Shown: in pieces, positions 3,801-25,543 of the stretch
How positions within the stretch are numbered: the stretch's first letter is position 1
How the letters are laid out: the number at the start of each line of letters is the position of its first letter
DNA from: Escherichia coli
GTDB lineage: Bacteria; Pseudomonadota; Gammaproteobacteria; Enterobacterales; Enterobacteriaceae
NCBI RefSeq assembly: GCF_051903065.1
Contig: NZ_CP178438.1
DNA: 64,000 bases
Direction: 5' to 3' (one strand)
Notes under the pieces: generated by a model
The model's input: the letters and a program-made list of their open reading frames with translations, nothing else
Databases searched by the model: none
What the model was told of the DNA's origin: nothing
Made by a program: the position numbers and the translations under genes

Positions 3801-4636
3801 AAACCTTAAAACCTGTAGTGTGCGATGCAAACGGCAAAGTCCTGAAAGATTTACCTAAGACAAACCAGAGCGATGATAAAACACTGGCAACTGACGCAGT
3901 TAATCTCTTCAAACAGTTGAAAAAAGATGTTCGTGCTATCGCCAGCCAGCAAATTACCCGTCTGGAACAGGCTATGTGCCAGCGCAGACGCTGGACGGCA
4001 GAGCAGTTCCGCCTGTTTCTGGTGGAGCATCCGCTGGTACGTCACTTAACCCGACGGCTGTTATGGGGGGTTTATAACGATGAAAACGCCCTTATCATCT
4101 GTTTTCGCGTGGCAGAAGACAGCACTTACAGCGATGCGCAGGATGAGTTATTCACGCTGCCAGCAGGAAACATCGGTATACCGCATGTGCTGGAAATCCC
4201 CCCTGAATCCGCCGCTGCATTCAGGCAAATTTACGTTGATTACGAACTGCTTCCCCCTTTCCAACAGCTCGAACGTGGTAGTTACCACCTTGCTGATAAC
4301 GAACGTAATGTCCATGAATTGTCACGCTGGAACGGACGTCTCTGCCAGGCCGGACGCATTGTCGGGCTGGAACGCAGAGGCTGGCAACGTCTGGAAGAAA
4401 GCGGCAGCGTCTATGCGATGCGCAAATCTACCCCTTATGGTGCTCTCGAACTTGAAACAGAACCTTTTTCATTAATTTATGGCGAAACGGGGTATAGCGA
4501 CCTGCTGCCTGTCGAAAGCGTAAAAATCACCGCCCCTTATGATCGCTATGGTAAACAATCCTCACCCACTTTCTCCGTGCTCGACGACATCACCGCCAGC
4601 GAGCTGATTAACGACATTGAATCACTGTTTGATTAA
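834..4636 (+). pseudogene. molR: WGR-domain/DUF4132 protein (MolR-type), disrupted by a frameshift near 3750-3765
   Basis: ORFs 834..3809 (991 aa) and 3818..4636 (272 aa) together align colinearly with the intact 1249-aa paralog downstream; shifting frame at about 3757 restores the LDFG.RKFTV.FDETLKP motif seen in paralog 2; N-terminal WGR-like sequence MKSYIYQDEKSHKFWAVEQQ. Confidence 0.75.
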
Positions 4637-4648
4637 AAGGATTTAACA

Positions 4649-23932: not shown

Positions 23933-24664
23933 ATGGCGCTTTACACAATTGGTGAAGTGGCGTTGCTTTGTGATATTAACCCTGTCACGTTACGCGCGTG
24001 GCAGAGGCGTTACGGATTGCTGAAACCGCAACGGACAGACGGCGGTCATCGGCTGTTCAACGATGCCGATATTGACCGGATCCGCGAGATCAAACGCTGG
24101 ATCGACAACGGCGTGCAGGTCAGCAAAGTTAAAATGCTGCTCAGTAATGAAAATGTTGATGTGCAGAACGGCTGGCGCGATCAGCAAGAAACATTACTGA
24201 CTTACTTGCAAAGCGGCAATCTGCATAGCCTGCGAACGTGGATCAAAGAGCGCGGTCAGGATTACCCCGCCCAGACGCTCACCACGCATCTGTTTATTCC
24301 TCTGCGCCGACGGCTTCAGTGCCAACAACCAACTCTCCAGGCGCTGCTGGCGATCCTCGACGGCGTACTGATCAACTACATCGCCATCTGTCTGGCTTCG
24401 GCACGTAAAAAACAGGGTAAAGATGCGCTGGTGGTTGGCTGGAATATTCACGATACCACCCGTCTGTGGCTGGAGGGCTGGATTGCCAGTCAACAAGGAT
24501 GGCGCATTGATGTCCTCGCCCACTCGCTCAATCAACTACGCCCTGAACTGTTCGAAGGCCGTACATTGCTGGTGTGGTGCGGTGAAAATCGAACCTCCGC
24601 CCAACAACAGCAACTCACCAGTTGGCAAGAACAAGGCTATGATATTTTCCCACTCGGCATTTAA
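23933..24664 (+). CDS. mlrA: MerR-family transcriptional regulator (curli regulator MlrA, 243 aa)
   Basis: N-terminal MerR HTH YTIGEVALLCDINPVTLRAWQRRYGLL; synteny. Confidence 0.85.
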   Translation: MALYTIGEVALLCDINPVTLRAWQRRYGLLKPQRTDGGHRLFNDADIDRIREIKRWIDNGVQVSKVKMLLSNENVDVQNGWRDQQETLLTYLQSGNLHSLRTWIKERGQDYPAQTLTTHLFIPLRRRLQCQQPTLQALLAILDGVLINYIAICLASARKKQGKDALVVGWNIHDTTRLWLEGWIASQQGWRIDVLAHSLNQLRPELFEGRTLLVWCGENRTSAQQQQLTSWQEQGYDIFPLGI

Positions 24665-24723
24665 TGATTCGTTAACAAATGCGCTTTACTGTACAATCCT
24701 TTCGTTAACATAAGGAGTGCATT

Positions 24724-24831
24724 ATGCGCATAGCTAAAATTGGGGTCATCGCCCTGTTCCTGTTTATGGCGTTAGGCGGAATTGGTGGCGTCATGCTCGC
24801 AGGTTATACCTTTATTTTGCGTGCTGGCTAA
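24724..24831 (+). CDS. yohO: Small membrane protein (35 aa, [35 protein letters not shown])
   Basis: Hand translation; below the length cut-off of the ORF track; position after mlrA. Confidence 0.6.
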
Positions 24832-25543
24832 GCGCCTGCACCAGCCTTTCAAACAGGCGGTCTGCGATGATCGCCGCCAGTGCCACCAGTAACGCCCCCT
24901 GGATCACATACGCGGTATTAAATCCGCTAAGCCCGATGATGATGGGCGTACCCAGCGTGCTGGCCCCTACCGTTGAGGCGATCGTCGCCGTACCAATGTT
25001 GATAATCACCGAAGTTCGCACGCCCGCCAGAATCACCGGAGCCGCCAGCGGTAGCTCGACCTTACGCAGTCGCTGACCACGACTCATTCCCATACCTTTC
25101 GCAACTTCTGTCACACTGGCATCAATCGCTCCCAGCCCGGCAAGTGTCGCCTGCAGGACGGGCAGCACACCGTAAAGGATCAAGGCGATAATCGCTGGTT
25201 GCAGACCAAAGCCTATCACCGGAACGGCGATCGCCAGCACCGCGACGGGCGGAAAAGTCTGTCCAACGGCGGCAATAGTTTCCACCAGTGGGCGAAATTC
25301 CGCGCCCCACGGGCGAGTGACAGCAATTCCGGCACCAGTACCAATGATCACCGCAAACAAACTCGAAATTCCCACCAGCCAGAAATGAGCCAGCGCCAGG
25401 GCCGCAAAACTTTCTTGCTGATAAACGGGTCTCGGCAGTTGTGGGAACAAGGCAGCAAACAGCGGCTGGCTGTAAGGCAGCCAGAAAATCAGCGCCACAA
25501 AAAGAGCAATGAGCCAGAACAGCGGATCGCGCAACATCTTCAT
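24812..25543 (-). CDS. yehW: ABC transporter permease (osmoprotectant uptake)
   Basis: Tracked ORF, polytopic membrane protein; operon context yehZYXW. Confidence 0.85.

Follow-up and report, generated by a model that had tools for sequence, protein, structure and literature searches.

The window analyzed here, a stretch of 64,000 nucleotides from the Escherichia coli contig NZ_CP178438.1, carries the gene order btsS (minus strand), mlrA (plus), yohO (plus), yehW (minus), yehX (minus), and yehY (minus). On the plus strand, mlrA (23933–24664), which encodes a MerR-type regulator, lies upstream of yohO (24724–24831), which starts with ATG and encodes a single-helix membrane protein of 35 residues with a GGIGG core; on the minus strand, yehW (24812–25543) encodes 243 residues and is further identified by a profile match. 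The 3′-terminal codons of yohO and yehW share a doubly coding stretch of 20 bp (24812–24831, both strands), which reads FILRAG-stop for YohO and SQHAK-stop for YehW, and in which the codon positions face each other as 1:1, 2:3, and 3:2, that is, in phase 1. The ORF list and the RefSeq/PGAP annotation, which agree on all three coding sequences, bear out the original prediction that a 35-codon plus-strand yohO ending at 24831 overlaps tail to tail, over 20 bp, with a minus-strand yehW ending at 24812. Since a stop codon fixes where an ORF ends, this overlap is independent of which start codon is chosen. RefSeq/PGAP gives the same layout in a 100% identical E. coli strain (yohO at 3825–3932 on the plus strand, yehW at 3913–4644 on the minus strand), and the 1.7-kb region is found at 95% identity or more in 5,422 of 5,426 complete E. 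coli genomes. As two genuine opposite-strand genes that share 3′-terminal codons over a length of 2 modulo 3, yohO and yehW form a tail-to-tail pair of a type that is in itself not unusual in E. coli, in which a census counts 75 convergent overlapping CDS pairs; what goes beyond chance is its conservation.

YehW has a complete BPD_transp_1 domain, which reaches residue 239 of 243, and yehW is the last gene of the osmF(yehZ)–yehY–yehX–yehW operon, in which it encodes the permease of a glycine betaine ABC transporter. The assertion that both this operon and mlrA are regulated in stationary phase agrees with the literature, which links the two to RpoS: osmF/yehZYXW are core RpoS genes, a data set from 2023 shows RpoS dependence for both yehW and mlrA, and in the curli cascade MlrA stands below RpoS.

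On the other side of the overlap, yohO is a genuine protein-coding gene under purifying selection. Its product matches the NCBIfam equivalog NF010225/PRK13681 over residues 1–35 of 35 with 80.1 bits, for a curated cut-off of 57 bits, and a profile search assigned it to no Pfam family. Over the 28–29 nonoverlapping codons of 77 distinct orthologues, the entropy at codon positions 1, 2, and 3 amounts to 0.52, 0.18, and 1.23 bits, and dN/dS lies between 0.09 and 0.27. That yohO translation is detectable, on which the original prediction depended, is documented by a published in-frame Ribo-seq signal and by top-down mass spectrometry (PMC12529367), and Hemm 2008, as cited, stands for YohO as a membrane-bound small protein and for its tagging. 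The peptide is a single-helix membrane protein with an invariant core of 11 residues, and its distribution is narrow: an exhaustive phmmer search returned 17 representatives only, several of them frameshift artefacts, and this search and a scan of one genome per species both place it within enterobacteria, where the scan finds yohO to be single-copy and vertically inherited across the family. In these respects, YohO resembles the E. coli small membrane proteins described by Hemm, Storz, and Rudd, such as YohP, AcrZ, MgtS, and CydX, which likewise have fewer than 50 residues and a single transmembrane helix, have likewise been validated by tagging, Ribo-seq, or mass spectrometry, and are likewise narrowly enterobacterial.

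The region between mlrA and yohO (24661–24723) is itself highly conserved: across about 20 genera, the spacer measures 58–60 nt and is conserved like a gene. Immediately before yohO lies a Shine–Dalgarno sequence, AAGGAG (24712–24717, plus strand), which reads AAGGAG or CAGGAG in 74 of 76 loci, and further upstream a −10-like hexamer, TACAAT (24692–24697, plus strand), which presumably belongs to a yohO promoter, given its conserved letters and spacing: a TAnAnT hexamer stands 31–33 nt before the yohO ATG in 75 of 76 enterobacterial loci (TATAAT in 48, TACAAT in 20). A conserved TTAACA (24672–24677, plus strand) precedes this hexamer by 14 nt, a spacing found in 55 of the 76 loci, and is for that reason too close to it for a canonical sigma-70 −35 element. 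Another GTTAACA is seen directly before the Shine–Dalgarno sequence. Over the mlrA stop codon lies a palindrome, TTAATG-ATT-CGTTAA (24661–24675), present in 42 of 76 loci, with the consensus TTAATG-GTT-CATTAA in other species and the general form TTAAKG-N3-CRTTAA; to judge from conservation, this palindrome and the other conserved elements of the spacer may form an unrecognized operator. Read on the other strand, TAACA corresponds to the ArcA half-site. In Shigella, yohO is reported to change by −2.96 log2 anaerobically, that is, to go down about 8-fold; we nevertheless set aside ArcA as a regulator acting through the TTAACA repeats, for which the literature search returned no support and which would be speculation.

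A terminator scan flagged no terminator-like site between mlrA and yohO. At the start of mlrA, the same scan flagged a hairpin with a T-run (23937–23959), and the 3′ end that published Term-seq data place 38 nt within the mlrA ORF (MG1655 2214904, window 23971) falls just downstream of this hairpin, which together suggests premature termination or attenuation inside mlrA.

The evolutionary dynamics of the overlap were followed in the one-genome-per-species scan, for which 80 yohO loci are listed of 159 confirmed. In 74 of the 80 listed, which span about 20 enterobacterial genera, a complete yehW converges on yohO, and in all 74 of these the yehW stop lies at exactly position +88 from the yohO start. 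Only the length of the overlap differs: 33 listed loci, including those of Escherichia, Salmonella, Citrobacter, and Shimwellia, have a 35-residue YohO and an overlap of 20 bp, 40 listed loci, including those of Klebsiella, Raoultella, Kosakonia, Pluralibacter, and Leclercia, have a 37-residue YohO ending in RGGVG and an overlap of 26 bp, and one listed locus has an overlap of 17 bp. All three lengths are 2 modulo 3, hence phase 1, which is reported as the commonest phase, with close to half of the convergent overlaps that remain when those of 4 nt are left aside (preprint summarizing earlier surveys, bioRxiv 10.1101/2025.11.07.687268). What separates the two main classes is a 6-nt indel within the overlap, which in one event extends YohO from 35 to 37 residues and YehW from 243 to 245 (window 24812–24850; columns 58–86 of alignment A2). 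Variability across the whole alignment is highest immediately beside the overlap, at about residues 7–11 counted back from the YehW C-terminus.

Within the overlap, the two proteins are not constrained to the same extent. The C-terminus of YohO is nearly invariant there, when the last 5–7 residues of YehW vary (SQHAK, TRHVK, SRHRREQ, and others). At doubly coding positions, 22 distinct variants are silent in yohO and change YehW, against three of the reverse kind and three that change both, when 33, 26, and 43 single changes, respectively, are possible in these classes; the binomial p of this asymmetry is 6.5e-4, a value that carries no correction for phylogeny or transition bias. The reading that best fits these patterns is that selection inside the overlap would protect YohO, and that the short basic tail of YehW would take what the antisense strand allows. 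The tail stays basic, as it is in the YehW orthologues of Yersinia and Azospirillum, which were taken from a plasmid collection as outgroups, the relatives listed by a protein search with YehW being all at 78% identity or more. Since these orthologues, which have no yohO beside them, carry tails that are as long or longer, YehW has not been specially extended into yohO. At the same time, the overlap was never resolved in any of the 74 species, though one new stop codon in the variable tail of YehW could suffice, and this could point to selection for the arrangement.

Compared with the short phase-1 tail-to-tail overlaps described by Huvet and Stumpf (2014, PMC4161906), the pair likewise has stops embedded in the last codons of the partner, and as in prokaryotic phase-1 overlaps generally its length is 2 modulo 3; it is one of about 75 convergent pairs in E. 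coli. Unlike typical representatives, however, one partner has only 35 codons, about a fifth of which is covered by the overlap, and a whole bacterial family shares one register, with a 6-nt indel that lengthens both proteins.

The tie to yehW is not universal. In four Erwinia species among the listed loci (L029, at 3940–4240, L081, L042, and L046), yohO is found with neither mlrA nor yehW nearby and encodes a 34-residue protein ending in FIVRS. There, a sigma-S-like GCTATACTT motif stands upstream of yohO within an inverted repeat, a GC-rich hairpin follows its stop codon, and the gene for a 492-residue MFS transporter lies about 130 nt downstream on the same strand, so that yohO adjoins a transporter gene in both contexts, yehW in Enterobacteriaceae and the MFS gene in Erwinia. 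The MFS neighbor was considered as a ProP-like osmoprotectant transporter, which would have given a second link to betaine, and was discarded, as it matches no ProP model and falls below all curated cut-offs. In Escherichia sp. MOD1-EC7003 (L004, 4092–6838), only the last 46 codons of yehW are left (63% identity), and yohO and mlrA are intact; a minus-strand ORF of 787 residues replaces the rest of the yeh operon in this genome. With its own conserved −10-like hexamer and Shine–Dalgarno sequence, its solitary presence in Erwinia, and its retention beside a yehW remnant, yohO is, as far as these comparisons indicate, an autonomous gene.

The transcripts also overlap, and over a longer distance than the coding sequences. 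Indeed, a published Term-seq data set lists, in three entries, a plus-strand 3′ end at MG1655 2215813, classed as primary for yohO and antisense to yehW (Adams et al. 2021, eLife, PMC7815308). With an offset of 2190933 between the window and MG1655 (MG1655 = window + 2190933), anchored on the mlrA start and the published value of 38 nt internal to mlrA and controlled by the identity between the window and the flanking sequence printed with the Term-seq end, this end maps to window 24880, 49 nt beyond the yohO stop codon and 69 nt into the coding sequence of yehW. The yohO 3′ UTR (24832–24880, plus strand) is therefore antisense to yehW codons, and the two mRNAs must overlap whenever both are made. 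On the minus strand, Adams et al. 2021 (PMC7815308) list no 3′ end for yehW. ExcludonFinder moreover counts the pair among the 165 convergent excludons of E. coli that it detects in half or more of 58 RNA-seq samples from MG1655 (Sanmartin et al., NAR 2025, PMC12288877). Published 3′ end mapping and this listing thus support the overlap of the two transcripts, which the original prediction required of any coupling at the RNA level.

How the yohO transcript comes to an end can also be read from published data. A terminator scan of 24790–24900 returned no intrinsic terminator on either strand, and a shared bidirectional intrinsic terminator was rejected as a candidate, the local hairpin at 24820–24845 having its U-run on the wrong side. 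Further downstream, bicyclomycin data place a plus-strand Rho termination region at MG1655 2215995, antisense to yehW, with a Rho score of 5.64 and a p-value of 9.4e-16 (PMC7815308). In the window, this region of the yohO-sense transcript spans 24881–25140 (plus strand), with its peak at 25062, and its RNA is C-rich and G-poor: the C/G ratio is 1.3–1.6 past the yohO stop and rises to 2.9 near 25060–25137. Rho-dependent transcripts are known to be trimmed back to a protective stem that lacks a U-tract (Dar and Sorek 2018, PMC6061677). The yohO transcript shows the features of a Rho-dependent terminator with a protective stem–loop, Rho dependence itself being taken from the published data: as in the 3′ ends of Dar and Sorek, its end is sharp, stands right after a stem without a U-run, and is followed by C-rich RNA and a bicyclomycin-sensitive region. 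Unlike in that type, both arms of the yohO stem are coding, one for yohO and the other antisense to yehW. A genomic SELEX study of minor sigma factors lists a weak peak within a gene (type D, intensity 4.0) between yohO and yehX, at the old K-12 coordinate 2214150 (PMC5493296), which lies inside yehW at about window 25190.

The stem in question was examined by folding the last 105 nt of the mapped yohO transcript. The terminal stem–loop (24783–24879, plus strand) has a free energy of −41.9 kcal/mol and a z-score of −2.35, and its outer stem pairs 24783–24793 with 24868–24879 around the stop-codon region, with the mapped 3′ end just after it and no U-run. It is somewhat stabler than shuffled sequence (4 of 200 shuffles fold equally well), when the junction folds of the two strands are unremarkable (z −1.0 and −1.2). 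Across the 74-sequence alignment of the overlap and the 3′ UTR, however, RNAalifold gives a consensus of −5.8 kcal/mol with a covariation term of −0.68; the pairs of the E. coli terminal stem are formed in 76% of cells, with a double, compensatory change in 1 of 13 pairs, and the structure as a whole is 65% paired against 56% when the partners are slid by one codon. The pairing of the stem is what would be expected from two conserved coding sequences alone, namely GGCGGCG, which encodes GIGGV in YohO, and CGCCGCC, antisense to AAI in YehW. A conserved RNA structure across the overlap and the 3′ UTR is accordingly not retained, since there is almost no covariation and coding conservation explains the E. 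coli stem, which, lacking covariation support, may be fortuitous. Rfam returned two chance-level matches, neither of them in the overlap or in the yohO 3′ UTR, and on the whole the fold and alignment tests of these two stretches revealed no RNA structure that points to a selected RNA-level mechanism.

From a regulatory perspective, the original prediction held that convergent overlap can couple the expression of the two genes through transcriptional interference or antisense pairing of their 3′ ends. As a statement about this pair, such coupling is a generic possibility only. As opposite-strand neighbors with overlapping transcripts (the Term-seq end inside yehW; Table 1 of ExcludonFinder), yohO and yehW qualify as an excludon, and they fit the profile of the ExcludonFinder pairs, which are more syntenic than other neighbors and enriched for stress and transport genes (PMC12288877). 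They also resemble its worked example, relBE–ydfV (PMC12288877), in being opposite neighbors whose transcripts overlap at their 3′ ends, but opposing expression was shown for relBE–ydfV, when only the overlap of transcripts is on record for yohO–yehW. Conversely, the coding sequences themselves overlap in yohO–yehW, and not the UTRs alone.

On the basis of these likenesses, the pair could be thought to act as a functional excludon, in which yohO transcription, alone or with RpoS-dependent read-through from mlrA, would enter the yehW 3′ end and lower or shape yehZYXW expression, and conversely, through polymerases that meet head-on and/or through cleavage by RNase III of a duplex of at least 69 bp, so that YohO and the betaine transporter would be expressed reciprocally. 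The overlapping transcripts, the lack of a terminator that would insulate yohO from yehW, an arrangement perfectly conserved in 74 species among the loci listed, stress-regulated neighbors, the anaerobic decrease of yohO itself in Shigella, and the higher synteny of excludon pairs as a class (PMC12288877) are all consistent with such a circuit. Yet the literature that names both genes contains no study of the pair or of its reciprocal expression, and offers no dsRNA or RNase III evidence for it; in this regard, it should be said that p19-based dsRNA validation is reported not to have been feasible for convergent pairs in general (PMC12288877). Moreover, only the final 69 nt of yehW, itself the last of the four genes in its operon, lie in the overlap, and cleavage there would therefore remove little; no structural or sequence element is conserved beyond coding needs; the constraint on the YohO C-terminus explains the conservation; and yohO persists without yehW in Erwinia and without an intact yehW in Escherichia sp. 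MOD1-EC7003. We therefore hold a functional excludon to be rather unlikely, if still worth weighing.

The juxtaposition could alternatively reflect a functional tie between proteins, YohO then being a subunit with an accessory or regulatory role in a membrane transporter, in this case YehZYXW, in the manner of AcrZ, KdpF, or MgtS. Its nature as a single-helix membrane peptide with an invariant core would suit such a role, as would its position beside a transporter gene both here and in Erwinia; but the convergent orientation and the separate promoter mean that yohO and yehW are not co-expressed, the two neighboring transporters are unrelated (ABC against MFS, the Erwinia one not being ProP-like), and yohO survives where most of the yeh operon has been lost, all of which makes this tie very unlikely. 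More improbable still, to the point where we would hardly entertain it, is that yohO is a type I toxin-like gene whose mRNA is checked by antisense pairing with the yehW transcript. YohO is indeed short, hydrophobic, and membrane-bound, and the 3′ part of its mRNA is complementary to another transcript, but the RNA on the antisense side is here the coding end of an mRNA for a housekeeping-type permease and not a dedicated sRNA, and Rfam offers no matching family; the strong Shine–Dalgarno sequence, the conserved −10-like hexamer, and the ready detection of YohO at native levels also speak against a toxin, as do the single copy, the vertical inheritance, and the presence of yohO without the partner in Erwinia. 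On these grounds, we do not assign the pair to the type I toxin–antitoxin systems.

What the observations favor, and what we consider probable, is an ordinary convergent CDS overlap that has become evolutionarily locked in, rather than a dedicated regulatory device, with a Rho-terminated yohO transcript that reads antisense into yehW. yohO itself is best read as a gene in its own right for a small membrane protein, squeezed in where mlrA and the end of the yehZYXW operon face each other. It would be transcribed from its own promoter-like motif (the TACAAT at 24692–24697), to which conservation points, and probably also by read-through from mlrA, and would be translated from its strong Shine–Dalgarno sequence, in keeping with the translation shown in the literature. 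As the scans find no room for, or sign of, an intrinsic terminator, RNA polymerase would run on antisense into yehW, where the untranslated C-rich RNA would let Rho terminate transcription within a few hundred nucleotides, at about 25062, in line with the published bicyclomycin data and the matching composition. The transcript would then be trimmed back to a stable stem, as expected from Dar and Sorek 2018, and so acquire the sharp 3′ end that Term-seq shows at 24880. Since the yehZYXW mRNA must reach its own stop codon at 24812, geometry implies that the two RNAs should be complementary over at least 69 nt. The overlap itself would be an old juxtaposition, locked in by the constraint on the YohO C-terminus together with a tolerant YehW tail, and any cross-talk, whether from colliding polymerases or from cleavage of the duplex, would come as a side effect and probably a modest one. 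To deny the overlap a dedicated function is an absence-of-evidence position.

Overall, yohO–yehW combines three known things, namely a phase-1 convergent overlap, a listed excludon (in the sense of transcript overlap only), and a Rho-dependent, stem-protected 3′ end, and the overlap, which every RefSeq annotation of E. coli contains, the YohO protein, the transcript 3′ end, the Rho dependence, and the excludon listing are all already on record. What is added here is a register fixed over about 20 genera, selection that appears to favor a 35-residue protein over the tail of a transporter, and a conserved promoter-like motif for yohO. As it stands, the overlap matters little; the comparative results underline strong selection on YohO, and the pair offers a clean and simple test case for the regulatory costs and benefits of a conserved convergent CDS overlap. 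It is a long shot that the overlap has been kept because yohO transcription, driven by an oxygen-responsive promoter of its own and by RpoS-dependent read-through from mlrA, would tune the stability or completion of the yehZYXW mRNA 3′ end, or because YohO acts on the betaine transporter. If either were true, the gene of a 35-residue protein and a transporter operon would make up one regulatory unit.
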